Assembly: GCA_002787405.1 (NCBI GenBank)
Contig: PCWQ01000007.1
Span: 102,250-166,249, forward strand
Reading direction: 5' to 3'
Length of the DNA stretch: 64,000 nt
Origin: Candidatus Komeilibacteria bacterium CG11_big_fil_rev_8_21_14_0_20_36_20
Lineage (GTDB): Bacteria; Patescibacteriota; Patescibacteriia; UBA1558; GWA2-36-10
Shown here: piece by piece, positions 15,474 through 38,021 of the stretch
Layout of the letters: each line of letters begins with the position of its first letter
Numbering within the stretch: the stretch's first letter is position 1
Program-made: the position numbers and the translations under genes
The notes under the pieces: model-generated
Told to the model about the DNA's origin: nothing
Databases searched by the model: none
The model's input: only the letters and a program-made list of their open reading frames with translations

Positions 15474-16931
15474 TTAATTACTCAAAATATTTGGATTTAA
15501 AGGCAAATAAGGAAGTAAATAACTATTGTGATATTGCTGGTTGTAAGACCAAATCAGATTATCGCTAGCTTCTGATTTATCATCCAATAAATAAATTTGC
15601 AAGCTGGCACTGGATTCCACCTGATCGGCCTTAATCAATAATTTAATATCAGTCCCCTCTGGACTAACCGATAAACCTAAGGGCCAGTTGGCAGTAATCT
15701 GACCTTCATTTATGATAAGATCAGTATGCTCAAACTGATTATTAGCCCAAATCTCTACTTCAGAAATTTCAACGCCGTAGCTATCCAGTCGCCAACTTAG
15801 TTTATTCAAACTTACGTTATCCTGACCACGAGCTTTGACCTTAAGATTGAAAAGTGTGTTCCAGCCAGACGATAGTGCTTTATTTGATTCGCCATTATCA
15901 AATTCAGGAAAATGGTCTCTAACCTCTATCCGACTCAAAAATAACTGTTCCGAAAATTCTATATCCTGACCGGAAGCAAAACCAAGCCCTTGGGCTTGAA
16001 TTAAATGAAAATCATAAACTCCAACCGGCAAATCAAAAGCGTAAACTTTTAAATTGATGCTCTTGTTGGCTGCCAGAACCACTGGTTTATCTAAAATAAA
16101 AACAATTTGCTGACTATCTGAATCTGGCTTGCTGATAGCCACCGTCTTACTATCATCGGATAAAGTAAAAATCTGGTCAGTTGATAAATTTTGATCCGAC
16201 TGATAACCAACCACTATTTGCCTAAGATCAATCATCTCGCCAGTGTTATTCAAAATAAACGAAGCTATCTGGTTGGCTTCCCGACTGGCTGCCAAGAAAT
16301 CTGTTTTTTTAAAATTATTATAGGCAGAAATACTGCCTTTTTCTATAAAAGAAATTAAACCTCCGGTCACTGGAAAATCTCCTTGAGCTGTAAACACATG
16401 ATCCTGATAAGACAAAAATACGGCCTGAGCATCTTCTAAACTAAACTGCAAAATATCACCAGCTGCTAAATATTGATTGGAAGCCAATAAAATACTAAAT
16501 TCATTTTGACCAACCGGTAATTTATAGCCCGCCGCATCAAAATAAATATAGCCCTGCTCATCAATATCAGCCATTTGTCCTAATTGCATCCCCTGATGAT
16601 ATAATTTTAAATCAGCTAAAATTGCCGGATCATACAAACCATTAACATATACTTTTATTTTATTAAGAACCAAGCCACTCTGGCTGGTTTGAATAACTAA
16701 ATTAAAAACCGCCAAGCGAGAGAAATCCACAACCACAATCTGATCGGTTGAATCAGCGATGACAATGGCCGCATTGTGCAAATCAACCGCTGCTTTACTG
16801 ACCGGCCCTTTACTCATACTCAAAGAGAAAACAAAAACCAAAATAGCAATAAATAAAAGAGTAAGATAAATTTTAAAATCCATCATATCTTTCTTTTGTT
16901 GATCTAATGGCGGACTTAAGTGCTCAAACAT
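15474..16931 (-). CDS. Membrane-anchored hypothetical protein (large extracytoplasmic beta-rich region)
   Basis: 485-aa ORF with a single N-terminal TM helix. I recognise no family. Confidence 0.5.
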   Translation of the reverse strand: MFEHLSPPLDQQKKDMMDFKIYLTLLFIAILVFVFSLSMSKGPVSKAAVDLHNAAIVIADSTDQIVVVDFSRLAVFNLVIQTSQSGLVLNKIKVYVNGLYDPAILADLKLYHQGMQLGQMADIDEQGYIYFDAAGYKLPVGQNEFSILLASNQYLAAGDILQFSLEDAQAVFLSYQDHVFTAQGDFPVTGGLISFIEKGSISAYNNFKKTDFLAASREANQIASFILNNTGEMIDLRQIVVGYQSDQNLSTDQIFTLSDDSKTVAISKPDSDSQQIVFILDKPVVLAANKSINLKVYAFDLPVGVYDFHLIQAQGLGFASGQDIEFSEQLFLSRIEVRDHFPEFDNGESNKALSSGWNTLFNLKVKARGQDNVSLNKLSWRLDSYGVEISEVEIWANNQFEHTDLIINEGQITANWPLGLSVSPEGTDIKLLIKADQVESSASLQIYLLDDKSEASDNLIWSYNQQYHNSYLLPYLPLNPNILSN

Positions 16932-19084: not shown

Positions 19085-20836
19085 TTAATTAGCTGTTGCC
19101 CAAAAAATCAACTGGCCATTTTTCTGTCCTTGCCCCGCAAAATCATCCGGTATGCTCAAAGATACATTGACTGCATCAGATAAACTAACCGGCAAAGAAA
19201 GATTGTAATTCTCCCAAAGCTCCTGATTTAAAATAGTGTGACTAGAAAAAGGATCATCGCCTAAAACACTGGCTTCAATATAAATATTTACATTACCGGT
19301 GTTGCTTAAAACCAGAATTGTTTCGGCTGATTGCCCCGGATTTAAAATGCCAAAATTAATATTAGTTTGATCAACATTAAAAGCGATCACATCGCCGCCA
19401 TGATGACCGCCGTTTTCAATATTGACTGATAAATCAACTGTATTGGAAATTCCCTGGCCAATGGTGATATATACTTTGTTACTTCTAATATATAATTCTG
19501 TTTGTTCGGCCCAGACCGGATAAACTCCTTCTGTCTCTAAAGTGACGTTAACTTGACCATTATTATCTGCTGTATAAATTGCTGAACCAACATGCACTTC
19601 CGCCTGCGGCCAAGCCAGCCAGTTCTGTCCGTCAAAATAACTAGCTGAGACAGTTAAATTATTATCATTCAAATTGGCTTCTACTCTTCCTGGATAGACG
19701 GTCAAGCCGCCATAGCCCCATAAAACACTATCGCCTGCCTCCAACTGATAATTATCAACTGAAACCATGCCGGTCTGCCAATTAACCCAATAGTGCCAAC
19801 CATTTATTCCTTCTGCCTCCAGACCATCAATCATGGTAACATACATACCGTATTCAGTTTCAATGGCCTCATATTCAAAATTACAAACCTGCGAACCGAC
19901 TGCCAACAAATCCAGCACTGTTTGCGCTTCTAAGTCACTAGCCAAACAAATAGTCTGGTCAAGCCCTTCAATGCGTAAATCAACTCCGACGGGCGTACTG
20001 CCATTTTCTAAAATAATATAATTAACAGGATAGGTGCGACCAGACAAACTTAATAGAGCATAAGCGGTCACTAAAGGAGAACCATCCTCATCAGCCGGCA
20101 ACCAAGCAAAAGATCCGTCTACTCGCTTTAAGCTGTCCATAAAAATCAATGGGTTATTTTCTCCAATCTGCCAAGTATTGACCGCCATATTCAATTTATT
20201 CAAGGCAGCAATAATCCAAGCAGTGGAAGCACCATCTGAATCACTGAATTGATCATAACCAAAACCACCGTCTTCATTCTGCACACTATGCAAATAATTT
20301 AAAGCGTTAACTATTTCTGGAGAAGAATTATCTAATCCCCCATCAACTAAAGCCATAATCGCTGCGGCCGTATCATTACTATCCGATGCTCCGCTGACTG
20401 ACCAACTCCAGCCCCCATCACTGTTTTGATGAGCTAGAATAAAATCTTTTAATAAAACCACATCATCTGTCTGATTAATCGAAGCCAAAGCCATTAATCC
20501 CCAAAAATCATCATTTAAGAGATCAGTTGATCCTAATTGTCCACTATTAAAATTACTGTTAATGGTGATGAGCAGACTTTCTAGAGACTGATAATCTTCA
20601 CTCTCCACAGCCGCTAAAGCTAAGGTATTTTTGACAGCGGTCATTAAATCGCTGGTATTAGGATTTAAATAGTCAAGATTAATATTCTCAACTTCCGCAG
20701 CCGCTAGGGCTTGGGTAATCCAAGCATTTTGGGCCTGATTTTGCAGATACTGAATAGTATCATCATATTCAGCTAAGATAATTAAAGGAGCTATTATGAA
20801 ACTCCCAATCAGCATAGAAAAAATTATCTTTTTCAT
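19085..20836 (-). CDS. Secreted protein with prenyltransferase/squalene-cyclase-like (alpha-alpha toroid) QxxDGGW repeats
   Basis: Signal peptide, then the repeats HQNSDGGWSW and VQNEDGGFGY, plus a C-terminal beta-rich region. Confidence 0.55.
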   Translation of the reverse strand: MKKIIFSMLIGSFIIAPLIILAEYDDTIQYLQNQAQNAWITQALAAAEVENINLDYLNPNTSDLMTAVKNTLALAAVESEDYQSLESLLITINSNFNSGQLGSTDLLNDDFWGLMALASINQTDDVVLLKDFILAHQNSDGGWSWSVSGASDSNDTAAAIMALVDGGLDNSSPEIVNALNYLHSVQNEDGGFGYDQFSDSDGASTAWIIAALNKLNMAVNTWQIGENNPLIFMDSLKRVDGSFAWLPADEDGSPLVTAYALLSLSGRTYPVNYIILENGSTPVGVDLRIEGLDQTICLASDLEAQTVLDLLAVGSQVCNFEYEAIETEYGMYVTMIDGLEAEGINGWHYWVNWQTGMVSVDNYQLEAGDSVLWGYGGLTVYPGRVEANLNDNNLTVSASYFDGQNWLAWPQAEVHVGSAIYTADNNGQVNVTLETEGVYPVWAEQTELYIRSNKVYITIGQGISNTVDLSVNIENGGHHGGDVIAFNVDQTNINFGILNPGQSAETILVLSNTGNVNIYIEASVLGDDPFSSHTILNQELWENYNLSLPVSLSDAVNVSLSIPDDFAGQGQKNGQLIFWATAN

Positions 20837-25410: not shown

Positions 25411-26514
25411 TTACTGCTCAAGTAAATTAAAACTATTAAGCATCATCTCAAAGGTGGTGGCAAAATGTACGCCTGATAGTTCATTAATTGTATAAACAAT
25501 CCGATAAATACGCTGATTAACCGCCATCAAAACCTCAAAACCATCTACTGATCTCAAAGCGGCTTGACCACCTAAGCTGTAATTCTCAAACTCTCCTGGG
25601 GCAAAAGCTTGCTGCCATTCAGATAAAGGTAATTCCTGTTTATTATTTTCTACTACTTCTACGCTGATAAATTCACCACTTTCTGAATCGGGTAAAAATA
25701 AAATTTGGCTTGTTTTTTCGTCAGCGGCTTGTGATATCCAAATAGTTGGCCTAAAAATACTATACCCAAAAACATTATTGCTATATTGAGTAACTAATCC
25801 TGAATCAGCCAAGAGGTCGTTAGGTGCTATGGGACTATATAAATTCTGCACCTCCATCCCGTCTTTATAGCCATCTCTATCTGTATCATCGCGACGAGGA
25901 TTGCTAGAATAGATAATCTCTTCTTCTGTAGTTAAGCCGTCTTGATCACTATCTATAACTGATTCATTCTGATTTTCATTATCATTAGCATTCTCATTGC
26001 CGTTTATATTCTGGTTGCTATTATTATTTTGGTTAGAATTCTCGTTATTATTTTGGTTACTGTTGTTATTCTGATTTTCATTATCATTAGCATTAGCATT
26101 CTCATTGCCGTTTATATTCTGGTTGCTATTATTATTTTGGTTAGAATTCTCGTTATTATTTTGGTTACTGTTCTGGTTAATATTTGTATTATTAATATTA
26201 AGCTGGTTATCCTCCACATTTTTGTTAATATACCAAACACCAAAACCAATCACACCACCGATAAACACAATAAAAATAACCCCGCCGATAATCATTTTTT
26301 TAATGTTTCTTTTTGAGTTAGTTGGCTGACCGATTAAAAATTTCTTCGGCATGATATGAATTTCGCCATCCTTAACAGGCACGCTGTTGGTATCATTTGT
26401 CTTCTTGCTTTGAAAATCATTCCCTACTAAATTATCAACCTCCAGTTGTTGGTCATTATTTTGAGATGAGTCTTGATTGAGCAAATCTCTACCATGATTT
26501 GGATTAGTAAACAT
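25411..26514 (-). CDS. Membrane-anchored N-rich repeat protein with thrombospondin-type-3-like Ca-binding repeats
   Basis: TM anchor, an Asn/Gln-rich tandem repeat region, then DSDQDG/DTDRDGYKDG DxDxDG motifs and a C-terminal globular domain. It is a paralog of 26552-27436. Confidence 0.6.
   Translation of the reverse strand: MFTNPNHGRDLLNQDSSQNNDQQLEVDNLVGNDFQSKKTNDTNSVPVKDGEIHIMPKKFLIGQPTNSKRNIKKMIIGGVIFIVFIGGVIGFGVWYINKNVEDNQLNINNTNINQNSNQNNNENSNQNNNSNQNINGNENANANDNENQNNNSNQNNNENSNQNNNSNQNINGNENANDNENQNESVIDSDQDGLTTEEEIIYSSNPRRDDTDRDGYKDGMEVQNLYSPIAPNDLLADSGLVTQYSNNVFGYSIFRPTIWISQAADEKTSQILFLPDSESGEFISVEVVENNKQELPLSEWQQAFAPGEFENYSLGGQAALRSVDGFEVLMAVNQRIYRIVYTINELSGVHFATTFEMMLNSFNLLEQ
25970..26172. 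repeat. Two tandem copies of a ~99-105-nt coding repeat
   Basis: ttctcattgccgtttatattctggttgctattattattttggttagaattctcgttattattttggttactgtt occurs twice in tandem. The second copy has a 6-nt attagc insertion. Confidence 0.8.
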
Positions 26515-26551: not shown

Positions 26552-27436
26552 TTACTCAACTAATACTCCTTCTCCTAAAGGATTATAGCCGTTGCTTACT
26601 TCTAGGCCATCGCTATAACCATCGTCATCTGTGTCAGGATTATTAGGGTCGGTCTGCCAAATATTGATCTCGTCATAATCTGATAAACCATCATCGTCTG
26701 AATCACTTGAGGTCGGATCTGTTTTATAGGTTACTGCTTCCTCGCGATCAAACAAACCATCATTATCTGAATCAGGATTTAAAGGATCACTGCCTAATTC
26801 CTTTTCTTCAGCATTGGTTAAACCATCTGAATCATCATCCATCTCTTCCTCATTAAGAGGTGGGACATTAACATTCTCATTAAGATTAATATTCTGATTA
26901 ATCTCTTCATTAGCATTATCATTGAGATTAAAATTGGTGTTAGTATTCAAATTAACGTTTTGATTTAATTCTATGTTGGCATTATCCCCTGAGTTGAATT
27001 TACCAGTCGCAAATAAATAAATTACCACTACTACTGCTAAAGCAACCAAAACACCAAAAATTATAATAATCTTCTTTCTCATTATTCCTTCTCTTTCGTC
27101 TTTAACTACCATCTTATCAAGTGATGATGTGCTTGGTGGCGGCTGACTGGACGGCAGAGAGGTTTGAGAAATCGGCTTTAATTTGCCCGATTGCAACCCG
27201 CTTAAAGACCCTGATGCTGAAGAGACCGCCACAGGAGCTTTATCAGCCACCGGATCAACATCAGCAAACATATCGTCAATTTTACCTGAAGCCGAAACCG
27301 ATTCCATTTTTGACACTTGACCTTCTGCTTGAACTGGTTCTTTAGCTGGTTCTGAAGTTGATGATGAAGTAGTTGGTTGAGGTATTTGAAAATCAGTATT
27401 TAAATTTTGTTTACTTTGTTTTAAATCATCAAACAT
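26552..27436 (-). CDS. Membrane-anchored N-rich protein with thrombospondin-type-3 repeats
   Basis: The C-terminus has DPLNPDSDNDGLFD, DPTSSDSDDDGLSDYDE and DPNNPDTDDDGYSDGLE repeats. Confidence 0.6.
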   Translation of the reverse strand: MFDDLKQSKQNLNTDFQIPQPTTSSSTSEPAKEPVQAEGQVSKMESVSASGKIDDMFADVDPVADKAPVAVSSASGSLSGLQSGKLKPISQTSLPSSQPPPSTSSLDKMVVKDEREGIMRKKIIIIFGVLVALAVVVVIYLFATGKFNSGDNANIELNQNVNLNTNTNFNLNDNANEEINQNINLNENVNVPPLNEEEMDDDSDGLTNAEEKELGSDPLNPDSDNDGLFDREEAVTYKTDPTSSDSDDDGLSDYDEINIWQTDPNNPDTDDDGYSDGLEVSNGYNPLGEGVLVE

Positions 27437-27456
27437 AAATATAGTTTAATTTATAA

Positions 27457-28215
27457 TTACATTTCGCTTAAACAATTTTGTTTATACTCCTGGAGCGGAA
27501 TACGCGAACAAATACTAGGATCATTATCAGCTATGGCACGATTCATTAAAATAACGCTCTGGCATATCTCTTGAAAGTCATTACTGACAATAAAACTATT
27601 ATTGCAAAAATTTAAATCCTTTTGCTGGGCAATGACGCTGTGTATACAGCTCTCTTTAATCTGGTTATCAATAATATCGCCGCATAGAGAAACATTGTTT
27701 TGCTCCCTGGCTTGACTGCTGGAAACATAATCAAGACAAACATCTTTAGTCTCTGAATTACTGATTGAATGACAAAATTTCTTGTCATTTTTTTTTAAGG
27801 CAAAAGCTAAATAACAATCGTCTTCTAAATCCACCAAGCTGCACAATTCTGGATCATTAAGAATAACTACCTGCCTTAACTTAACGCCGGCCAAACATTC
27901 CTCTTTTTCTGTTTGGTTTGACAGCCTCTCGCAAGATCTCTGATATTTCAACAAAGAAAAATAATTTTCCGGCTGATCTAATATTGCCAGATCAGCTGAT
28001 GATAATCCTTCTAAAAAATCTACTTCCACAGCTTGACTTGGCTCAAATGGTTGATTATTAGTATTATTATTTGGCTGATTGACATTAGAATAAATATTGC
28101 TGTTTTCTATTGATGTATTGTTGTTACTCAGAAAAAAATAATAACTAATCCAAAAAACGCCGGATATTATTATCATGGTCAGAACGATTAAGCTAACTGT
28201 CTTACTGTGTGTCAT
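27457..28215 (-). CDS. Cysteine-rich secreted/anchored hypothetical protein
   Basis: 252 aa with an N-terminal TM/signal and about 14 Cys in a repeated pattern. It is the last-but-two gene of the surface-protein operon. Confidence 0.55.
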   Translation of the reverse strand: MTHSKTVSLIVLTMIIISGVFWISYYFFLSNNNTSIENSNIYSNVNQPNNNTNNQPFEPSQAVEVDFLEGLSSADLAILDQPENYFSLLKYQRSCERLSNQTEKEECLAGVKLRQVVILNDPELCSLVDLEDDCYLAFALKKNDKKFCHSISNSETKDVCLDYVSSSQAREQNNVSLCGDIIDNQIKESCIHSVIAQQKDLNFCNNSFIVSNDFQEICQSVILMNRAIADNDPSICSRIPLQEYKQNCLSEM

Positions 28216-28218
28216 ATA

Positions 28219-31200
28219 TTAATAATAATCATTATTAACCCAAGGGCAAAAATTATATTCAGCATCAAAGAAGAGGACGCTGGATCCTGCGCCGCCGTCA
28301 AAACTGACTTTAAAATCAATAACATTATCGCCGCTGTATTCTTCGCAATGATTAGCATTTAGAAAACCGGTGCCAATAGGAAAATCCCAAACATAACCGT
28401 CGCCATTATCATCTGAGATTGTATAAGGGACGTCATTAAGGGTAATTTTTATAGTGTCTATTGGTATGGAACCGGCAATAGACTGATACATACCTTCTAA
28501 TTCTTGTTCCGTAGTGCCGTGATAAGCTCTTTTCTTATGATTATCATTCCATTGACAAGCAGGCCCACAGCCAGCTTGACCATCACATTCTTCAAAATTA
28601 GCATAATTATTAGAAGCGCAATAAGTATGGCCATCACTGCAAGCGCCAAAAGAAGCCTCGCAATTATCTCCAGAACAATCACAAGCACTGGAAGAAATGC
28701 CATTCATAAAAGTAATTAAACTATTAGTTGTTGTTAAAGCTACAGTAAATAAATCAATGCCTGCTGTTGTTTTTAATTCATTTGCTTTAACAATAACTGT
28801 ATTGCTGGCTGTACCACCATCACTCATAAAAATAACCAATTTATTATCATAATTAGGACCGGCATTAAAAGTGTCTAAAGCCATCTGCAAAGCATTAAGA
28901 TGATTGGTACCGCCCATATTGGCAGAATAATTATTAACAATAGTCTTTAAAATATCAACCTCACCAATGTCGCGAAAATCACTATCAAGATTAGCATTAG
29001 TGCCATAGGAAACCAAAGCAATTTCAGCTATAGGATTAAGATTAAAAATAGTATCTATGGCATTGCCATCGCCGGCAATGGCTTCTCTTAAAGCACCAAT
29101 CATGCCACCCATACTGCCTGAACGATCAGAAACAAAGACAATACCCGTAGTGGCGGCTACTCCGGTGTCAATAAAGACATCAGTTAAAATATTACCGCTG
29201 ACCCGACAAGCTGGTAAATTAATAGTCGTGCTACCTCCTGGTGGTTCAAAATATCCTGCCGGAATATTACCAAAGACTACAGGTTCAATAATAACATCGC
29301 CAGCTGGCTGGCCACCTCCATTATCCCAACAAGTCCATTGACAATCATCAGTACAAACATTATCATTGTTGTCATCAACATCATCACACTCTTCTGGCTC
29401 TCCTGCCCCAAAATGTTCCTGCCTGATACCATCACCACACCAGCCACCAGTACTGGTTAAACAAGTGTCAGCACATAGATATTGTAAATCTGGACCAGAA
29501 TTTTCTGGTGTTGGCTGATCATTATAATCACTACCATCACAATATTCTTCAAATGTATTTTGACGAATATTATCGCCACACCAGCCAGCGGCTGTTGGTG
29601 TACAGCGGGTATAAACTCCCTGATCTATCCGACGGCAACAATACTGATAATATTCACTGGAATCAGGAGGATCTGGACGATTATAACCTATATTACAATT
29701 ATTAGTATCCACGTCATAATCACAAAGTTCTTCAAATTCATATTCTAAAATGACATTGCCACAGAACTCATACGTAAAAGTACAAGCTTCTGTGCAGGCA
29801 TAGGCATTGTTACTATTAGACTCGGAAGGAGTCGGCGCTTGATAACCAAAGAAATCGCATTCTTCAGCGTCATCTACATTGCCGTCTCCACAAAAACCTT
29901 CGTATGGGTCTCCGACATCACAACTTCTTTGACAACTATTGTTACAATAAATATTGCCATCCTCAGTGCAATCCCAACCATCTAAACCGTCTGGACTGCC
30001 AGTTGGGTCGCATTCTTCAGCGAGAGGAGTCCAAGTTCCATCTAAACAAGCAGTGGCTGGTGTACCATTATTACAAATTGGTTGACAAGTAATAGCACTA
30101 CAAGTTACCGGACCATTATCAGGAGCACAGCTATATTCTACGCCATTGAAATCATCTATGTTTTCAATTCTTTCACAAAGTTCATACATGGTTTCCAAAA
30201 ATCCATCGCGACAATAGCCGCCGCATTGCTCGGGAGTCAATTGTAAATCATACCAAGTACACTCTACTAGATCACAATCCCAAAATCCGGCATTGGCTTC
30301 ACAATCTGCCTGATTATCATATTGACCATCACTACAATAACAATTTAGCGCTCCAGCCGGATAACAACCCGCTCTTTGTTCATTCCACCAATCTTCAGGC
30401 CATAAAACTTCATCGCACATGTGGTCTCTAAAGTTACCGTCGCATTCTTCTCCGCCATCCACTACTCCATTGCCGCAATCTGGATCGCCCGGAAAGCCGG
30501 GATCATTATAAGTGCTACTGTCACAATAAGCGATCAAATTAGAAGAAACGCGAGGTATAGCATTAACTCCTACTGGGAACAAATTATTGGCAAAAGTAGC
30601 ACTAATATTAGGGTCAGGATCCTGATCATATTCAAAATTACTACCAATGTCATAACTCATGCCAGCTAGTAGATTATTATAAAAATAAATTAAAGAATTA
30701 AGCGGACAAGTAAACTCTAAATTATTCTCATCCCAACAAGTATCTGGATCAGCTCCTTCAGGACAACCATTAAATAAATTGATGGGGTCTATTCCTAAGC
30801 TCATATTTAAAGACTGGCCTAAAGTTTCTTGCCAAGAAGGCCAAACGCTGGTAGATATTCCAGCTACAAAGGTACCTGCATTTAATCTTGGATAATAAGG
30901 CATACAATTTCCGTTGCCCGGACATTGACCGTCATTATCACAACTAATATTACCATTATTGTCACAAGCTTTATGTAGTTGACCATATACTTCTAATAAA
31001 TCCCTTAAATCAATTAAACCCCCCAGACGCTTGGTGTCTCTTCTTAAAGCCAAACCGCGATCATGGCACCAATCCGCATTAGGACAATCAAAATCATTGG
31101 AACAATTAAGAGTTGGATCCCAATGACAAATATTATCCTCTAAATCAAGATTGATATTTAATTTAAAATTATTTACCAATTGACTGAAAATCTCCTGCGT

Positions 31201-34200
31201 CTGTAACGAAGCGCCGATATTATAAGCTAAAATGTAGACATTGGTATAAATATGATTATCAACAACATTAGTGGCAGAAACATAAATTGTATTACCGACC
31301 TGCAAGGCCTGATAACCGTTAACTTCTAAGTACTGCCCCGATTGATTTGGATTAGGGGCATAATGCTGATACCAGCCGTTGATTGATAAATGTTCAGTAT
31401 TAGGCATAATCCTAATAGCAATAACGTCTATGGACGGCTCCTCATCAGTGGCTCTAACCGTCACAATATTGGAAAAAGCTGAATTACCTGAACCATTAAA
31501 AGCAAAAATACGATAACTATAAACCTCCCCTTCTACTACAGTATCATCCGTAAATGTATCTTGGTTGGCGCCAACTGTGCCTATTTCACCCCACAAGCCG
31601 TTGAGATTGCGTCGTTGGATACCAAAACCATCTTCATCATGAGAGATATCATTCCAGCGCAACACGACCTCTTGGCTGCTGAAACTTTCATAACGCAAAT
31701 TAGTCGGAGCAGCTGGACGACCATAATCCTGTGCGCCCTGGGCTGTATCTGACTTAAATAATCGAGCTAATTTATTCCACCAAGATTGATCTACTTCTTG
31801 CTTGGCGAAAGCTAAGCTGCCTAATCTCTGATTAGCTAAATTACTTCCCTTAAAGGTTAATTCACCATTAATTAAGAAAATATATTCTTTCAAAACGCCT
31901 TCCGGAATTGGATTAGTCTCTACTGGCGGATAAGTAATATAAGGTAAACTTTCTTCATCTCCCCTTCCAGAAGACTGACAATAATAATCGGAAAAATTAT
32001 AGTCATTCTCTGCCCAAGGAAATCCTTGCAAACTAGGCCAAGGATTTTCGCATAAGAAAAGATTAACTTGAGCGCTATCATCAGCCCAGCCCTCATCAAC
32101 TGCTGAAACTATAACATTGATCACTTCAACACCATTGTCATTAAAAGGAGTGGCTTCGATCTCCTGTAAATTATCATTCTCTAAAATTATTAAATTGTTA
32201 TTAACTGACCAAAGATGATCTAATAAATTTCCATTAAGTAAAGTACCGGCAATATCATAAGTTTGAGCTAAATAAGAATGCTGATTGCCCGCCAAACCAC
32301 CATTAACGTCATTCGGGCAGTCATCTCTAGAGCAAGTGAACCAGTCTGGATCAGGATTAATGATTGTATAATTAATCTGGCAGATATGATCACCAGTAGT
32401 AAATCGCCAAGAATAACCATCTTGACCATTAATATTGTCATTATAGGTTGTTGGATCTAAAGGCAAACCATTAGCGCTCTCTACCCGTCCGTCAACAAAG
32501 ACTAAATGCTCTGTACTAGTGGCTAGATAATCAACCGGATTAAAAATAACTTCTGTCTGATCATTAATATTATCGTTATTAGAATCAAAATCGCGGAACA
32601 TAAAGCTACCATCCACTTCAATAGTTGGCGGATCATTCTGGGCATCTCCATAAATTTTTACATAATCGCGAACACTATCTCTGTCCATTACTTCGCTAAA
32701 AGTGATGCTGATGGCCGCATTAGGGCAAAAATTCATTTGCCCATCAACTGGCAGATGATCAACCACAAAAGGATTATCATATATTGGCGGTTGTTCCTCA
32801 TTAATATCTACCGTTAAAATATCACTGCCCGGCACTGTATCACCGTCTTGAGTAACATTAACCCAAATATTAGTATTACCATTATCTACCGGCGTGGCTG
32901 GTACACTCTGGAAACCAGTATCAATGGTAGCGACATTATTATCTGTAGATGACCAATCCCAGGTACAAAACTCATTACACTCTAAGGGTTGACCTCCACA
33001 AATGCCTCTATTTGAATAAGGATAAGCTGAGTAAGCTATATTATTATAATTATGAGTAATATAATTGTCCGGCTTAACTTCCACACTCTCAAACTGACAA
33101 TTTTCATTGCCTACTGTAAATTGCCAAATATGAATATTATCTAATGAATCACCATAAAGACTCTGGACATTAGTAGTGACTGTTACTTCATAACTATGCC
33201 CCAAGACCAAAGGAGTATGTTGAATAGTAACAATTCTGTCACCGCCCTCCAAGAGAGCGCCGGTAGTAATATTATTGTTAGTATTAAGATCAACAATGTA
33301 AAAATTAGTGGTATCAACCGTAACTGGATCTAATTCAGTATTAAATTCAACTCCCACAGCCGCATTATCACAAGAATCATCGCAAAATGGCCAATAATCC
33401 ATAATTAACAAATTCGGAGCCATAATAATCGGCCTAGATATATCAGTTAAATTAAAATTAGCAATAGTTGCTCTCAACTCTACATAATTAGGAATTAAAT
33501 TTTCAGTTACTCCGTCGGCAGTCAATTCTGTGCGGCCATGATGAACATTAACATTATTAATCGGACTGATGGTGGCTTGACCAGCATTGGTCGTTAAATC
33601 CCAGTTCCAATTATATTCGTCACTGCACATATTACAATTATCTGCCTGTGGTGAAGCTGTAAAATTCCGACTCTGCCCTAAATATAAATCAGCCGCCGGA
33701 CTTTGAGGAGTGACCGCAATATTAATGACTTCGCAAACATCTGTATTATCTCGAGTTCTAAAATTCCAAAAATGATCATCCGCCGGCTGCCAAGTATCCC
33801 CACCTACCTGCGAATGAAATAAACCTAAATTCACTTGATACCAAGTATTGGGCTGCAAACTATTATCTGGGGTAAAGACTACTCCTTCATGAGAGCTATT
33901 GTGGTTTACTATTTCCAAAGAACCGTTAATGGCTGTATTACAGCCAGTATTACGATTGGTGCATTGCCAGACTCTAAAATTATTTCCACCCCCCAAATCA
34001 GCGTCAACTACATCCCGAGTAAATAGCGCCACCAAACTAATGCCAACATAAGCATCCTCTGAATTATATCCGTCTAAATCATCCGGCCAAGGTGAAGGAC
34101 TTTGCAAATCATTATTACAATTATAGTTGTAATACAAACCAAATGGTTCAGCTTCAGTTTCAATCGTCCAGGAATAAATGCACTGGTTTTGTACTGGCCC

Positions 34201-36420
34201 GCAATCCACCGCGCAATAACTGCCAGTATTACCAGGACAACAAGTCTCGCCGGGATCACAATCGCTATTATTAGAACAACTACCAACTTCAAAAACCATA
34301 CTGTTGCTATCAACGCCATTGCTGTCTACAACCTTAACCGGTCCGGTGCCAGCATTATCAGGCACGGAAGTATATAAAACTTGTTGATTATTCCAAGTTG
34401 TAAAATTAGCATTTTGATTATTATAAAAGATAACTTGGCCTTGGTTGTTGCCAAAATTATCACCAAAAAAATTAACTTCCAACCCTGCCGGTCCATTATC
34501 TGGCTCCACTAGACACAAACCAGGGCCCGGCGTACCGCCGATCACATTAAACCCATATTCATTGCTGACCGCCCCGTCACTATTTCTAATAACCGTCAAA
34601 TCATAAGTATTGAGCGGAATACTAGGCACCTTAACGACTATCCGATCCGACTGCCAAAAACTGTTGCTACATTGTGGTGGAAAATCAAAATCTCCGTCGC
34701 TGTTATCAAATTTCAACTGACCCTGTACTGAACCAAAATTAGCTCCCATCACCGTAATATATTGTCCGGTCGGACCAGCTCCCGGAGAAACTTCAGTAAT
34801 AATCGGCAAGCCTTCTTCCGGCACCAAGGCCGTAAAAGGATACGGATTACTTAATTCATTATTTAATAAATTCTCCAGTTGAACACTGGCCTCACCAATC
34901 ACATTAGGAACTTCCGCTGTGGCTTCAGTCGGCGGATTAATCACATTAGTATCATAACTAGGAATCGTACCGAAAGAAATTTCAGCGTTAGGATTATTAG
35001 GAAAATTGATACCCTCAATATTAATCACATCTTCATAATATCCGGAATCGCTACTCAAACTACAAATGCCCGGACGAGTAATGCCGTTTTCATCAAAGTC
35101 AACCGCATTACTGTAATTACCATCACTAGTTAAAACATCAACTTGCCCATCAGCTACCCCGGCGGGCAGACCGATAATAATATAATCATCATGCCAATAA
35201 TCAGCCGCGCATTGGGGATTAAAGTTAGTTGGCGGCACACCCAAGATACGGTTGTTCATCGCATCACTAAAATAAACACTGCCCACCATATCACCAAAAT
35301 TATAACCAAAAATAGTCACTAAATTACCGCCAGTACCGTTGTCTGGAGAAATATAACTGATATGCGGCATCCCACCACCACTGCCTTCACAAATATTCAA
35401 AGGCCGGCAAGAATTAGAACTACAACATAAAGAAGCGCAATCATTATTGTCATTACAAGTGACGGTAAAATAATCTGAATCCGTACCGTTAGCATTAGTG
35501 ACTATAATATTACTAGATAAAGCATTAAGATCTATATCAATATCTAATTCTGTGTCTGACCAACTATTAAAATTCAAAACCACTTGCTGCTCTCCGTTAT
35601 TCCAGCTAGTCATGGTTACTGAACCATTGTCGCTAAAACCAACGCCCTCTACGCTGACGTGTTGTAAGCCAGCTGGACCAAAATCAGGATCAAGACAAGC
35701 AACATTAAGACCGGGCAAACCATCAATAATGGTAAAATTATCCGCAATCTCACCACTAGCACGATTATCACTACTCGTTAAATTAATAACATAGCCCCCC
35801 AAAGGCAAATCAAGTACTTTGGCTTTGGCCTTATGATTATTCCAAATAGGATTGCCGCCGCAAGTAACTAGCTCCGCTACATTGCCATTAAAATCAACTT
35901 GGCCGGGTAAATCGCCAAAATGCCAACCAATGATCGTAACATAACTACCCACTGTTCCTTGTTCTGGCCTAATGTCACAAATAATAATTTCATCTGGATC
36001 AGCTGGCTCTGGACAGGTGGGAATATTAGGATCATTCTGGCCATTGCCACCCTGACCGCCGCTAGTTTCTTCCACTAAAGAACTTACAATAAACCGAGCA
36101 ATGGCATAAGCGGACAAAACAATAACTAAACCAATAACTGCGCTGATCATAATAGTCTTGGCTCTTTGAACCTTATCAACTTCACCACGAGAAGTCATCC
36201 AGATAAAACCACCGTAAAGGATTAAAATAACTGCCAGAATTCCTAAAAGGCCAAGAAAGATATTAATAATACCGGCCACAGTCTCGGCAATGGGTTTAGT
36301 ACCTAACTCTGTACTAGTTAAATCATTCACCCCAAAAGGATCAGCTTGGGCAAAAACCTTATTAACCCCAATCCAGGTCAACAAGCCAGAAACTATTAAG
36401 ATGGAAAACACTCTCCTCAT
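28219..36420 (-). CDS. Giant (2733 aa) multidomain surface protein
   Basis: A single uninterrupted ORF. Domains with approximate residue positions:
- aa 1-115: signal peptide plus two TM helices;
- aa ~140-700: repeated IPT/TIG-like modules (PIITEVSPGAGPTGQYITVMGANFG etc.);
- aa ~1568-1656: FN3;
- aa ~1975-2360: CGDG...EECD cysteine repeats;
- aa ~2420-2565: VWA with a DRSGSM MIDAS motif. Confidence 0.85.
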   Translation of the reverse strand: MRRVFSILIVSGLLTWIGVNKVFAQADPFGVNDLTSTELGTKPIAETVAGIINIFLGLLGILAVILILYGGFIWMTSRGEVDKVQRAKTIMISAVIGLVIVLSAYAIARFIVSSLVEETSGGQGGNGQNDPNIPTCPEPADPDEIIICDIRPEQGTVGSYVTIIGWHFGDLPGQVDFNGNVAELVTCGGNPIWNNHKAKAKVLDLPLGGYVINLTSSDNRASGEIADNFTIIDGLPGLNVACLDPDFGPAGLQHVSVEGVGFSDNGSVTMTSWNNGEQQVVLNFNSWSDTELDIDIDLNALSSNIIVTNANGTDSDYFTVTCNDNNDCASLCCSSNSCRPLNICEGSGGGMPHISYISPDNGTGGNLVTIFGYNFGDMVGSVYFSDAMNNRILGVPPTNFNPQCAADYWHDDYIIIGLPAGVADGQVDVLTSDGNYSNAVDFDENGITRPGICSLSSDSGYYEDVINIEGINFPNNPNAEISFGTIPSYDTNVINPPTEATAEVPNVIGEASVQLENLLNNELSNPYPFTALVPEEGLPIITEVSPGAGPTGQYITVMGANFGSVQGQLKFDNSDGDFDFPPQCSNSFWQSDRIVVKVPSIPLNTYDLTVIRNSDGAVSNEYGFNVIGGTPGPGLCLVEPDNGPAGLEVNFFGDNFGNNQGQVIFYNNQNANFTTWNNQQVLYTSVPDNAGTGPVKVVDSNGVDSNSMVFEVGSCSNNSDCDPGETCCPGNTGSYCAVDCGPVQNQCIYSWTIETEAEPFGLYYNYNCNNDLQSPSPWPDDLDGYNSEDAYVGISLVALFTRDVVDADLGGGNNFRVWQCTNRNTGCNTAINGSLEIVNHNSSHEGVVFTPDNSLQPNTWYQVNLGLFHSQVGGDTWQPADDHFWNFRTRDNTDVCEVINIAVTPQSPAADLYLGQSRNFTASPQADNCNMCSDEYNWNWDLTTNAGQATISPINNVNVHHGRTELTADGVTENLIPNYVELRATIANFNLTDISRPIIMAPNLLIMDYWPFCDDSCDNAAVGVEFNTELDPVTVDTTNFYIVDLNTNNNITTGALLEGGDRIVTIQHTPLVLGHSYEVTVTTNVQSLYGDSLDNIHIWQFTVGNENCQFESVEVKPDNYITHNYNNIAYSAYPYSNRGICGGQPLECNEFCTWDWSSTDNNVATIDTGFQSVPATPVDNGNTNIWVNVTQDGDTVPGSDILTVDINEEQPPIYDNPFVVDHLPVDGQMNFCPNAAISITFSEVMDRDSVRDYVKIYGDAQNDPPTIEVDGSFMFRDFDSNNDNINDQTEVIFNPVDYLATSTEHLVFVDGRVESANGLPLDPTTYNDNINGQDGYSWRFTTGDHICQINYTIINPDPDWFTCSRDDCPNDVNGGLAGNQHSYLAQTYDIAGTLLNGNLLDHLWSVNNNLIILENDNLQEIEATPFNDNGVEVINVIVSAVDEGWADDSAQVNLFLCENPWPSLQGFPWAENDYNFSDYYCQSSGRGDEESLPYITYPPVETNPIPEGVLKEYIFLINGELTFKGSNLANQRLGSLAFAKQEVDQSWWNKLARLFKSDTAQGAQDYGRPAAPTNLRYESFSSQEVVLRWNDISHDEDGFGIQRRNLNGLWGEIGTVGANQDTFTDDTVVEGEVYSYRIFAFNGSGNSAFSNIVTVRATDEEPSIDVIAIRIMPNTEHLSINGWYQHYAPNPNQSGQYLEVNGYQALQVGNTIYVSATNVVDNHIYTNVYILAYNIGASLQTQEIFSQLVNNFKLNINLDLEDNICHWDPTLNCSNDFDCPNADWCHDRGLALRRDTKRLGGLIDLRDLLEVYGQLHKACDNNGNISCDNDGQCPGNGNCMPYYPRLNAGTFVAGISTSVWPSWQETLGQSLNMSLGIDPINLFNGCPEGADPDTCWDENNLEFTCPLNSLIYFYNNLLAGMSYDIGSNFEYDQDPDPNISATFANNLFPVGVNAIPRVSSNLIAYCDSSTYNDPGFPGDPDCGNGVVDGGEECDGNFRDHMCDEVLWPEDWWNEQRAGCYPAGALNCYCSDGQYDNQADCEANAGFWDCDLVECTWYDLQLTPEQCGGYCRDGFLETMYELCERIENIDDFNGVEYSCAPDNGPVTCSAITCQPICNNGTPATACLDGTWTPLAEECDPTGSPDGLDGWDCTEDGNIYCNNSCQRSCDVGDPYEGFCGDGNVDDAEECDFFGYQAPTPSESNSNNAYACTEACTFTYEFCGNVILEYEFEELCDYDVDTNNCNIGYNRPDPPDSSEYYQYCCRRIDQGVYTRCTPTAAGWCGDNIRQNTFEEYCDGSDYNDQPTPENSGPDLQYLCADTCLTSTGGWCGDGIRQEHFGAGEPEECDDVDDNNDNVCTDDCQWTCWDNGGGQPAGDVIIEPVVFGNIPAGYFEPPGGSTTINLPACRVSGNILTDVFIDTGVAATTGIVFVSDRSGSMGGMIGALREAIAGDGNAIDTIFNLNPIAEIALVSYGTNANLDSDFRDIGEVDILKTIVNNYSANMGGTNHLNALQMALDTFNAGPNYDNKLVIFMSDGGTASNTVIVKANELKTTAGIDLFTVALTTTNSLITFMNGISSSACDCSGDNCEASFGACSDGHTYCASNNYANFEECDGQAGCGPACQWNDNHKKRAYHGTTEQELEGMYQSIAGSIPIDTIKITLNDVPYTISDDNGDGYVWDFPIGTGFLNANHCEEYSGDNVIDFKVSFDGGAGSSVLFFDAEYNFCPWVNNDYY
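28726..29163 (-). other. von Willebrand factor A domain within the giant protein
   Basis: The MIDAS residues are present: DRSGSM...GGTN...MSDGG. Confidence 0.6.
31453..31719 (-). other. Fibronectin type III domain within the giant protein
   Basis: APTNLRYESFSSQEVVLRWND...GEVYSYRIFAFNGSGNSAFSNIVTV has the classic FN3 W/Y/AFN pattern. Confidence 0.6.
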
Positions 36421-36455: not shown

Positions 36456-38021
36456 TTAAACATCTGGACCTTCACATCTGGTGCCGGCTGCGCAAGGCTG
36501 AGTTGGATCCTGATCACAAGCACAGGAACCGCCCGGATCATCACAAACGCAAGGATACCAGCAATTTTGCAAAATATCCTGAATGCCGGAGGAAAAAGTA
36601 GGTGTATATTGGGTTAAAGGATCAAAACGATCATGTCTGACGCTGACGGTATTATTGTCAACCACTCTCAACCAATAATTAACCGGCAGATTAGGAACCT
36701 TAACTAAATTTATATGCTCACTGTTTACTGAGCTAGATAATAAATTTTTACTAAAAACTGCTTCTATCGGATCATCTAAAGACAAATCCGCTCCTGAATC
36801 CATAGATATAATATAAGGAGGAGTCAAATCAATGGTGTCGTTGGTGCCAAATGACCAAATATAATTATTAGCTAAACTATTACCAGCCATATCCTCAATG
36901 GCAGTAGTCACTGTTCCTGTTAAATTTTCATTACCTGGCAAACAATAAACATCACCACCACAAGAATTAACGCCACATAATTCATCAGTAATAAACTCTA
37001 CGGTGCGATATTGATTAGAAATTAGATAAGAACCATTTAAAATATTAGCCCCCGCCAACGTAATATTCTGAAAAGGAGGATAAACACCAGCCGCGAATAT
37101 TGGATTAACGGCTTCAGAAAAATTCATCTGCACTGCACTATTGCGCGGATTATTAGTAGAACCATCAACTGGTAAAACTGAAGTTACTTCTGGTGGTATT
37201 AAATCAAGTTCATTATTAACTGTAAAATACCAATCATAAAATCCAGTAAATGGAAAGGCTGGCTGACCATTGCCGGTTTCTAAATTAATCAAAACTGCTT
37301 GATATCTCATACTGCCGCCAGCATTGCCTAAATGATTATTAGGATCGTTGCCATAAGGATTTATTTCAAAAACCTGATGGTTAGCATCATATTGGACCAT
37401 TAAATCAGCACCGAGGATCACATTATCGTCTTCATCAATTAATTGAATATAGCTATCATCAATACATTCAGTGTAATTTGGATTACAACCATTGGTAGTA
37501 ACAAAATTCAGATTCATTGGCTCGTTAAAAGTAATATAAATATTAGTATTGCGCGGTATATCAGTGGCATTTCTAGCTGGATAATGATTTTCTAACACGC
37601 CGCCACCCATCCCTTGGCCACCATGGTATTGACCGCCTCCTCCTCCTCCACCAAAGAAAGCATTACCGCTTTCCCGTAAAAGAAAACGGGCAATGGCATA
37701 GGCCGATAGAATAATTACTAAACCAATCACTCCGTTGATAATAATTCTTTTAGCTCGATCAATTTTATCAGCGCTGCCCTGAGAAGTCATCCAGATAAAA
37801 CCACCATAAAGAATAATTAAGGTAGCTAAAATACCTAAAAAGCCAAGAAAGATATTAATAATACCAGCAATTGTATCCGTTAAATCCTTGGTTCCTAGGA
37901 CAGTATTATTTAACTCATTGACGCCAAAAGGATCGCTTTGCGCCATAACAATATCAGGAAACAAAAAAATAACTGCCAAAAAAATAATAAACAGGACAGT
38001 TATTTTCTTATTAATTAGCAT
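36456..38021 (-). CDS. Surface protein sharing the giant protein's N-terminal anchor module
   Basis: 521 aa. Residues 1-125 are paralogous to the giant N-terminus (SDPFGVNEL...IAGIINIFLGFLGILA...YGGFIWMTS...AKR...LSAYAIARF). A poly-Gly linker follows, and the tail is Cys-rich. Confidence 0.75.
   Translation of the reverse strand: MLINKKITVLFIIFLAVIFLFPDIVMAQSDPFGVNELNNTVLGTKDLTDTIAGIINIFLGFLGILATLIILYGGFIWMTSQGSADKIDRAKRIIINGVIGLVIILSAYAIARFLLRESGNAFFGGGGGGGQYHGGQGMGGGVLENHYPARNATDIPRNTNIYITFNEPMNLNFVTTNGCNPNYTECIDDSYIQLIDEDDNVILGADLMVQYDANHQVFEINPYGNDPNNHLGNAGGSMRYQAVLINLETGNGQPAFPFTGFYDWYFTVNNELDLIPPEVTSVLPVDGSTNNPRNSAVQMNFSEAVNPIFAAGVYPPFQNITLAGANILNGSYLISNQYRTVEFITDELCGVNSCGGDVYCLPGNENLTGTVTTAIEDMAGNSLANNYIWSFGTNDTIDLTPPYIISMDSGADLSLDDPIEAVFSKNLLSSSVNSEHINLVKVPNLPVNYWLRVVDNNTVSVRHDRFDPLTQYTPTFSSGIQDILQNCWYPCVCDDPGGSCACDQDPTQPCAAGTRCEGPDV

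Follow-up and report, generated by a model that had tools for sequence, protein, structure and literature searches.

What does a protein of 2733 residues do at the surface of an ultra-small, small-genome bacterium of the candidate phyla radiation (CPR, or Patescibacteria), and how is it held there? The question is raised by a 64-kb stretch of DNA from Candidatus Komeilibacteria (hereafter the window, meaning the whole stretch that was analysed), in which a single reverse-strand gene encodes an enormous, very acidic multidomain protein that we refer to as the giant. The answer we favour, with a probability of about 70%, is that the giant is a Sec-exported cell-surface adhesin of Komeilibacteria built on a pilin module of the VirB2/TrbC type. 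The locus bears on two gaps in our understanding of these organisms, namely host recognition in CPR bacteria other than Saccharibacteria and the function of VirB2-like pilins, which are abundant in CPR bacteria and essential in the only species so far amenable to genetics, and it supplies a conserved and fast-evolving candidate attachment module in which one polypeptide physically links a pilin family with adhesion domains.

A pilin module at the N terminus of a giant protein

The giant and its parts are as follows, with coordinates of the window and residue (aa) numbers of the protein.

28219..36420 (−), giant open reading frame (ORF), ATG start and TAA stop, 2733 aa, 298 kDa, pI 4.05
36349..36420 (−), predicted cleavable Sec signal peptide, aa 1-24 (…NKVFA↓QA), hydrophobic at aa 4-24, putative cleavage site
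36052..36300 (−), VirB2/TrbC-like pilin head, made of hydrophobic helices at aa ~44-75 and 81-123 and the basic loop SRGEVDKVQRAK between them
34276..35988 (−), six IPT/TIG modules, aa 145-715, from Pfam TIG, internal repeats and a self-built hidden Markov model (HMM)
32395..33972 (−), Ig-like region with three Big_5 domains, aa ~817-889, 1019-1102 and 1217-1342, from Pfam
31456..31710 (−), FN3 domain, aa 1571-1655, from Pfam fn3 and the PDB entry FN3con
30478..31443 (−), family-defining Cys-stabilised alpha/beta domain of ~330 aa (the mid-domain), aa ~1660-1981, from alignment, an AlphaFold2 (AF2) model and a profile search
29326..30477 (−), Cys-rich region, aa 1982-2365, with three degenerate DUF4215-type units (CG[DN]G…E.CD…C..C)
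28426..29142 (−), VWA domain with a complete metal ion-dependent adhesion site (MIDAS), Pfam aa 2427-2576, probably extending to ~2665 over a Cys-rich insertion
28222..28425 (−), C-terminal tail of ~68 aa, no domain assigned, without LPXTG, RTX repeat or hydrophobic tail

The evidence that carries our reading begins at the N terminus. A preliminary description of the sequence had listed a membrane anchor there, and N-terminal anchoring stands, but the anchor is not a generic one: it is a VirB2/TrbC-like pilin module that matches PF18895 (T4SS_pilin) over aa 41-111, with 34.2 bits in the whole protein and 38.1 bits in an N-terminal piece, above the gathering score of 26.6. Hydropathy reveals three hydrophobic segments in the giant and no others (aa 4-24, 43-79 and 84-117), and the loop SRGEVDKVQRAK carries a net positive charge. 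Leader, hairpin and basic loop are conserved family-wide in our alignment, the 'xxAQ' at the end of the leader being kept in 25 family heads, and a Gly-rich linker follows the head, which AF2 models as a helical hairpin with a predicted local distance difference test score (pLDDT) of 81. No type IV pilin class III leader (G↓F/M-xxx-E) occurs in the first 60 residues, and scans of the giant for other anchors returned no LPxT[GASN], no GGxGxD (RTX) and no C-terminal hydrophobic tail. At a minimum, the head is a membrane anchor.

The close relatives of this head are small stand-alone pilins of 120-140 aa, which number in the thousands. A head profile retrieved 4,911 proteins, and the top 120 of these are stand-alone PF18895 proteins of Patescibacteria, 110-220 aa long, to which the window hairpin is 50-63% identical; some of them are named 'pilin' (NCBI) or 'VirB2 component (pilin)' (JGI). 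One genome (GCA_004297205.1) contains both an ortholog of the giant and an array of seven stand-alone pilin genes, and two further genomes have arrays of six to nine such genes. The stand-alone PF18895 arrays lie at the following positions of their loci.

L087, 6715-12131
L091, 5997-12200
L092, 3120-4936 and 10001-12598

In L087 and L091, the array comes directly after a gene for a solute-binding protein (SBP_bac_1/SBP_bac_8); in L092, a solute-binding-protein gene stands directly before one lone pilin gene, with a six-gene array ~5 kb further. VirB2-like pilins, and arrays of 2-11 of their genes, occur widely across the Patescibacteria, and a pilin gene is found near virB4 in 1,135 of 1,948 assemblies (PMC12102498); the same survey treats VirB2 as a small protein and did not detect adhesins such as PrgB. 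In Southlakia epibionticum, pilins and the type IV secretion system (T4SS) are essential for epibiotic growth (PMC10633639, PMC12857230), and in Paceibacteria enrichments the highly expressed genes include some that encode proteins with T4SS-pilin domains (PMC10936435). A Microgenomates genome has been noted to encode large proteins that combine a signal peptide with two or more transmembrane (TM) helices, although the head was not identified there (PMC7143001), and giant fibrous surface proteins have been reported in other CPR bacteria, such as the giant membrane proteins of Vampirococcus (PMC8080830). Within the library that we searched, we found no account of giant adhesins with a pilin head, and none of the mid-domain or the conserved locus described below.

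An adhesin-like ectodomain

Beyond the linker, the giant has the composition and the domains of a surface fibre. It is rich in Asn, Gly and Asp, with 380 acidic (D+E) against 91 basic (K+R) residues, and its 103 Cys residues cluster at aa 300-350, 700-750 and 1700-2400. Most of the domains named in the preliminary description (at least five IPT/TIG modules with Cys-rich knots between them, Big-like beta regions, one FN3 domain and a C-terminal VWA domain with an intact MIDAS) survived HMM-based domain mapping. TIG (PF01833) scores 58 bits in the whole protein, with at least five stretches, in three pieces, above the gathering score, and our internal HMM delimits six modules (aa 145-231, 238-322, 352-445, 450-531, 539-628 and 633-715). 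The Cys-rich knots, one within the array (aa 322-344) and one after it (aa 715-747), can be read directly in the sequence. Big_5 (PF13205) reaches 81 bits in the whole protein and 20-50 bits in pieces, above its gathering score, in three stretches; the segments between them are beta-rich and have no domain assigned. The FN3 domain is marginal by Pfam (PF00041, 26.1-26.3 bits against a gathering score of 25) and is supported by a match to FN3con in the PDB (4u3h, E=3.8e-6). At the C-terminal end, VWA_2 scores 37-41 bits (cut-off 27), VWA 33-37 bits (cut-off 23.8) and VWA_3 27-31 bits, and all five MIDAS residues are present (D2432, S2434, S2436, T2505 and D2534).

A block of four myxococcal-type Cys repeats, also listed earlier, fared less well. 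A custom HMM trained on 106 canonical units from family members, for which the maximum over 200 shuffles was 3.1 bits, recovers three of the four quoted units at 10-14 bits, namely those at aa 1982 (13.9), 2177 (10.0) and 2328 (13.8), but the fourth candidate, at aa 2281, is not significant by this model, and pieces covering aa 1961-2590 have no match to PF13948 (Pfam, E<=1) or TIGR02232 (NCBIfam, E<=10). All the units in the window protein bear insertions. Because the scores of the custom model stand above those of the shuffles, we regard them as three degenerate, insertion-bearing units of the DUF4215 type.

The preliminary description, which was partly supported overall, missed the mid-domain together with the conserved context of the locus. 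The homologs (119 sequences) cover the giant most densely in three places, namely its pilin head, aa ~1650-1950 and the TIG region, and alignments of 84 of the 119 cover the mid-domain. A 28-sequence alignment of this domain reveals the motifs LKLRRDxKRL, WPSW, DPINxFNGC and TCW, at least eight invariant Cys and invariant Trp residues. The mid-domain of the window protein matches nothing in Pfam or NCBIfam, and none of the 28 aligned members matches Pfam. Its AF2 model is confident and alpha/beta (pLDDT 84, predicted TM-score 0.82), and comparison with the PDB and BFVD gave no significant fold or sequence match. Among 1.84 billion cluster representatives searched with a profile, 1,610 match at E<=1e-3 and 1,251 at E<=1e-30, nearly all of them proteins of 2,000-4,500 aa with the domain at about residue 1,700-2,700, and 94 of the 101 listed matches of at least 2,000 aa have the pilin head at their N terminus. 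Judged by these alignments and searches, the mid-domain is the best-conserved part of the ectodomain and an undescribed domain that defines the family.

A large family of pilin-headed giants

A search with the full-length protein finds 169 proteins at E<=1e-5, the best non-self identity being 35-43%. The best 120 of the 169 are nearly all 2,000-4,500 aa long and nearly all combine PF18895, TIG and Big_5, and 115 of these 120 have their pilin head inside the first 135 residues; fn3, VWA, DUF4215, LamG and Big_7 occur among them as variable extras. Conservation is uneven along the orthologs: the head (50-62% identity) and the mid-domain (42-53%) are the best-conserved parts, stalk and tip are at 25-48%, and the distal VWA tip is found in some orthologs only. 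The giants thus form a large unnamed family, now labelled 'hypothetical', 'Ig-like' or 'FN3 domain-containing'. It is a Patescibacterial family, since every homolog with a taxon name belongs to the Patescibacteria (Komeilibacteria, Uhrbacteria, Kerfeldbacteria or 'Parcubacteria'). A eukaryotic origin of the domain mix was rejected on this ground, and the epithet 'eukaryote-like' given to it earlier has to be dropped, such domains being common in bacteria.

That a frame of this size is real is beyond serious doubt. The idea that the ORF is an assembly artefact, or a pseudogene created by repeats, has nothing in its favour except the unusual length, and we consider its probability negligible. 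The 8.2-kb frame is uninterrupted, as had been reported, with zero internal stops, and takes up 12.8% of the window, in line with the earlier figure of more than 12%. No tandem DNA repeats were found inside the gene, which makes repeat-driven misassembly unlikely. An identical protein is present in ENA, and the 90% cluster of the giant contains five further entries, of which three measure 2733 aa, one measures 2730 aa and one is a 1923-aa partial; they differ from the giant by 4-9 residues and include NCBI PIR07064.1/PJC55160.1 (UniRef100_A0A2H0NDW7, 'Candidatus Komeilibacteria bacterium') as well as JGI and Logan records. The near identity of entries from independent assemblies, in four of which the 2733-aa length recurs with just 4-9 substitutions, shows that the reading frame is real and reproducible. 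Furthermore, many genomes hold collinear orthologs of 2,200-3,500 aa. Comparison of repeat number, which had been proposed as a check, detected no variation among the sampled strains. The artefact explanation was therefore rejected for want of tandem repeats and because the length is reproduced across assemblies.

A conserved and fast-evolving locus

The giant is encoded in a compact module with four neighbours.

36456..38021 (−), 521-aa paralog upstream of the giant, pilin head 56% identical to that of the giant, Gly-rich linker, three Big_5, Cys-rich tail
27457..28215 (−), 252-aa membrane protein with one TM pass and six repeats of two Cys each, start codon 3 nt past the stop of the giant
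26552..27436 (−), 294-aa membrane protein with one TM pass, an Asn-rich linker and four TSP3 repeats of the bacterial type (PF18884, 6.9e-21)
25411..26514 (−), 367-aa membrane protein with one TM pass, followed by an Asn-rich linker, TSP3-like motif and C-terminal domain, the last of these conserved

The gene order is yqeY, 521-aa paralog, giant, 252-aa protein, 294-aa TSP3 protein, 367-aa protein, ybeY, dgkA, ftsA, ftsZ and nrdR, and the module genes form a tight, co-oriented run with gaps ranging from overlap to 86 nt. Both tandem pilin-headed genes match PF18895 above the gathering score. The same arrangement occurs at the six homolog loci examined in full, whose giants are 25-40% identical to that of the window and include the distant P0028 and P0105; in six of six full-length loci (L001-L006), the small paralog lies directly 5' of the giant gene, with heads on both. 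We also scanned GTDB species genomes using FtsA as an anchor. In the 16 Komeilibacteria-like loci (FtsA 66-78% identical) with enough sequence on the upstream side, a giant with the mid-domain stands upstream of ftsA and is followed by the TSP3 protein and the 367-aa protein, and the module order is kept in all 22 Komeilibacteria-like loci examined, or 23 with the distant L023 (FtsA 49%), which has a 1902-aa version of the giant. By contrast, ~60 loci of the Moranbacteria type (FtsA 40-48%) have no giant module within 10 kb. The 294-aa TSP3 protein is kept downstream of the giant in every locus reaching that far, and the C-terminal domain of the 367-aa protein in nearly all related loci.

Within these same loci, identity is 32-40% for the giant, 37-43% for the TSP3 protein, 39-42% for the 367-aa protein and 52-57% for the small paralog, compared with 78-84% for FtsZ, 72-76% for FtsA and 66-75% for histidyl-tRNA synthetase (HisRS). 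Measured by such identities, the predicted surface module evolves much faster than the housekeeping genes that flank it.

The 252-aa protein has a narrower distribution. Its homologs (L002, L007, L008 and L018) are confined to loci whose giant ends in VWA; one locus with VWA (L015) has no homolog, and ~15 VWA-less loci also have none. It may act with the VWA tip as a cognate partner, or it may simply mark one subclade.

The 294-aa and 367-aa proteins share a layout, with a low-complexity cytoplasmic N terminus, one TM helix, a long Asn-rich linker and DxDxDG repeats of the Ca2+-binding type. In NCBIfam, these TSP3-type neighbours match Myxococcus CglD and MtsD (cohesion/gliding) weakly and partially, in the repeat region only. 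In L004 (3992-5325, GCA_004297205.1), fragments of bAvd and RVT_1 that belong to a diversity-generating retroelement are inserted between the lytR and lepB genes, a short distance upstream of the pilin module; the window has no equivalent of this insertion.

How the giant might work

The natural reading of such a protein is that of an adhesin, and its architecture suggests attachment to a host or partner cell. After removal of the predicted signal peptide, the two helices deduced from the sequence and their basic, cytoplasm-facing loop would anchor the giant in a single membrane with its C terminus outside, a topology we infer from the known arrangement of VirB2/TraA together with the positive-inside rule. 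The second helix would act as an N-in/C-out export signal that places the whole ectodomain outside this single membrane. The Gly-rich linker, the six IPT/TIG modules, at least three Big_5 domains and the FN3 domain would form a rod of roughly 50-80 nm, ~13 or more beta-sandwich domains being expected to give a reach of tens of nanometres. This rod would bear the disulfide-rich mid-domain, which probably also binds ligands on partner cells, followed by the Cys-rich region. In this lineage, the VWA domain would be the distal tip, with its MIDAS binding an acidic ligand of the partner surface via a divalent cation. The ~520-aa pilin-headed Ig-domain paralog and the two TSP3-type Ca2+-binding membrane proteins are the putative partners in the module, and the latter may stabilise or organise the assembly. 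The giant is therefore a good candidate for how these bacteria hold partner cells.

The head may, moreover, dock with stand-alone pilins or with their assembly machine, which would make the giant a 'modular pilin' that shows an adhesin at or near a VirB2-type filament. We propose this because the head is conserved beyond what a plain anchor needs and closely resembles stand-alone pilins. Both termini of F-type pilins face outward, and C-terminal extensions can be displayed. Association with a pilus is nevertheless the least certain step of our proposal, and we hold it tentatively, expecting it to fail more often than to succeed. About as doubtful is its generalisation to a class of VirB2-type modular pilins, according to which Komeilibacteria-like and related Patescibacteria would graft giant, fast-diversifying adhesins, marked by the ~330-aa domain, onto a conjugative-type pilin hairpin, for display on, or at the base or tip of, a filament of stand-alone pilins.

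Several results weigh against the reading of the giant as a pilin-based adhesin. PF18895 is the sole match of the head above cut-off, TrbC (PF04956) scoring 16.6-20.1 bits against 27.9 and NF045849 ('pilin-like conjugal transfer protein') 33.6 bits, below its cut-off of 40. The head profile has no match among PDB sequences, so that solved VirB2/TraA pilins are not picked out, and Foldseek relates the head model only to helical hairpins of a generic sort, among them the c subunit of ATP synthase (best E 0.66), which is uninformative. No gene for a T4SS ATPase or channel (VirB4, VirD4 or VirB6), nor for other T4SS machinery such as VirB3, was found in the 64-kb window and 10 kb past each end (~84 kb), nor was a VirB4-like Pfam domain found within 10 kb of the pilin arrays of three Patescibacteria genomes. 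Steric constraints make it hard for each subunit of a helical pilus to carry an extension of 2,600 residues. Finally, adhesion, the ligand, expression and leader cleavage are all predictions made from sequence.

The lack of T4SS genes in these ~84 kb also speaks for the most serious competing explanation, to which we give somewhat less than even odds. Here, the giant would be a plain membrane-anchored fibrillar adhesin or surface coat: its hairpin, though descended from a pilin, would be only an anchor and internal export signal, without polymerisation or contact with a T4SS, and the giant would form a Ca2+-stabilised fibrous coat with the 521-aa paralog and the TSP3 proteins. A coat of this kind would agree with the place of the module among core housekeeping genes and its vertical inheritance, with the membrane anchors and long linkers of all four or five module proteins, and with the giant fibrous CPR surface proteins (PMC8080830) and the large Microgenomates proteins with a signal peptide and at least two TM helices (PMC7143001). 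What it explains poorly is the head itself: no other part of the protein is as well conserved (50-62%), and its identity to stand-alone pilins reaches 63%, which is more constraint than is normal for a simple TM anchor. The head is also common to a whole paralogous family that includes tandem pilin arrays.

The position of the module suggests another possibility, which we judge improbable, namely that the giant is an envelope- or division-associated structural protein, co-regulated with septation, that tethers daughter cells or organises the envelope rather than binding a host. Its position beside ftsA/ftsZ is indeed strictly kept in Komeilibacteria-like loci, in one orientation and with short gaps. 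However, the division genes diverge two to three times more slowly than the module, which also exchanges its distal domains, a behaviour typical of proteins facing a variable outside partner; VWA with MIDAS, TIG and FN3 are ligand-binding or spacer domains and not known parts of the divisome; and Moranbacteria retain ftsA without the module. We find it harder still to credit a delivery protein resembling polymorphic toxins, with an exchangeable C-terminal effector and the 252-aa Cys-rich protein as cognate partner or immunity protein. The C-terminal module does vary among orthologs (VWA or other), and the 252-aa gene is present only where the giant ends in VWA, but the variable tip is here a VWA domain, which is a binding module and not a toxin, domain searches detected no toxin or peptidase domains, and the co-occurrence may mark just one subclade, the closest relatives by FtsA identity. 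A surface adhesin on a pilin-type head is the reading that we retain.

Genomic setting

The window has a GC content of ~36%, a uniformly negative GC skew and nearly all its genes on the reverse strand, and is a strongly co-oriented segment of a replichore. Its FtsA is 72-78% identical to that of metagenome-assembled genomes labelled Candidatus Komeilibacteria or 'Parcubacteria'. Housekeeping genes lie on both sides of the module, those on one side encoding elongation factors EF-G and EF-Tu, phosphoribosyl pyrophosphate (PRPP) synthetase, ComEC, a release factor, NrdR, FtsZ, FtsA, diacylglycerol kinase (DAGK) and YbeY, and those on the other YqeY, HisRS, LepB, LytR, EngA, Pth, peptidase M17, GyrB and PheST; a ribosomal-protein operon and ATP synthase follow past the window ends. 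ARAGORN found no tRNA in the 64 kb, and no RNA reached the Rfam gathering level. A scan for promoters and terminators gave counts near shuffled expectation and no operon boundaries.

Two other genes deserve mention. A 583-aa protein (19085-20836, −) has weak matches to prenyltransferase and squalene-hopene-cyclase-like alpha/alpha-toroid domains, plus DUF4430, and most of the related loci keep it in the same synteny (L002, L003 and that of P0014). A 485-aa ORF (15474-16931, −), between the release factor gene and comEC, has no Pfam match; L005 has a 486-aa ORF without Pfam match between the release factor and competence genes (27228-28688).

Significance and comparison with known systems

If the modular-pilin reading is true, the yqeY…ftsA locus would be an apparatus for host recognition, and the purpose of Patescibacterial VirB2 pilins would be explained. 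If the head is only an anchor, the analysis still usefully annotates a family of giant surface proteins that is widespread among CPR bacteria. In either case, the mid-domain family, with about 1,600 clusters at 50% identity, merits a structure and a name.

The comparison with VirB2/TrbC-type pilins of Patescibacteria highlights both similarities and differences. The giant resembles these pilins in its leader, two-helix hairpin, basic loop, PF18895 match and 50-63% identity, and the tandem paralogy of their arrays recurs here in two adjacent head-bearing genes. Unlike these pilins, which are small (about 70-140 aa), the giant is ~20 times longer, with an ectodomain of ~2,600 aa C-terminal to the hairpin, and it lies in a conserved housekeeping locus with no adjoining T4SS gene.

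The closest parallel in design is PilB of Streptococcus sanguinis, a bimodular type IV pilin with a grafted vWA adhesion module (PMC8179133). Both proteins come from monoderms and consist of a pilin module and a C-terminal adhesion module with VWA and MIDAS. The main differences are that the pilin module of the giant is a VirB2-type hairpin and not a type IV pilin, and that the giant is far larger, with a long Ig-like stalk.

Cys-rich repeat proteins of Myxococcus (PF13948, TIGR02232) provide a more limited likeness, in the three CG[DN]G…E.CD…C..C units of the giant. Distant family members bear canonical PF13948 repeats at the equivalent position, whereas the units in the window protein are degenerate, insertion-bearing and missed by the public models.

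Lastly, the giant invites comparison with giant fibrillar adhesins such as SiiE, LapA, Gram-positive LPXTG adhesins and the Vampirococcus proteins (PMC8080830). Like these, it is huge and acidic, with tandem Ig-like, FN3 and TIG spacers, a distal binding domain and a presumed role in attachment. It differs from them in being anchored by an N-terminal pilin-type hairpin, rather than by sortase and LPXTG, by retention in a type I secretion system with RTX repeats or by an outer-membrane plug. The giant fibrillar adhesin is a known kind of protein; what is new here is the unusual module that anchors it and the undescribed signature domain that it carries.

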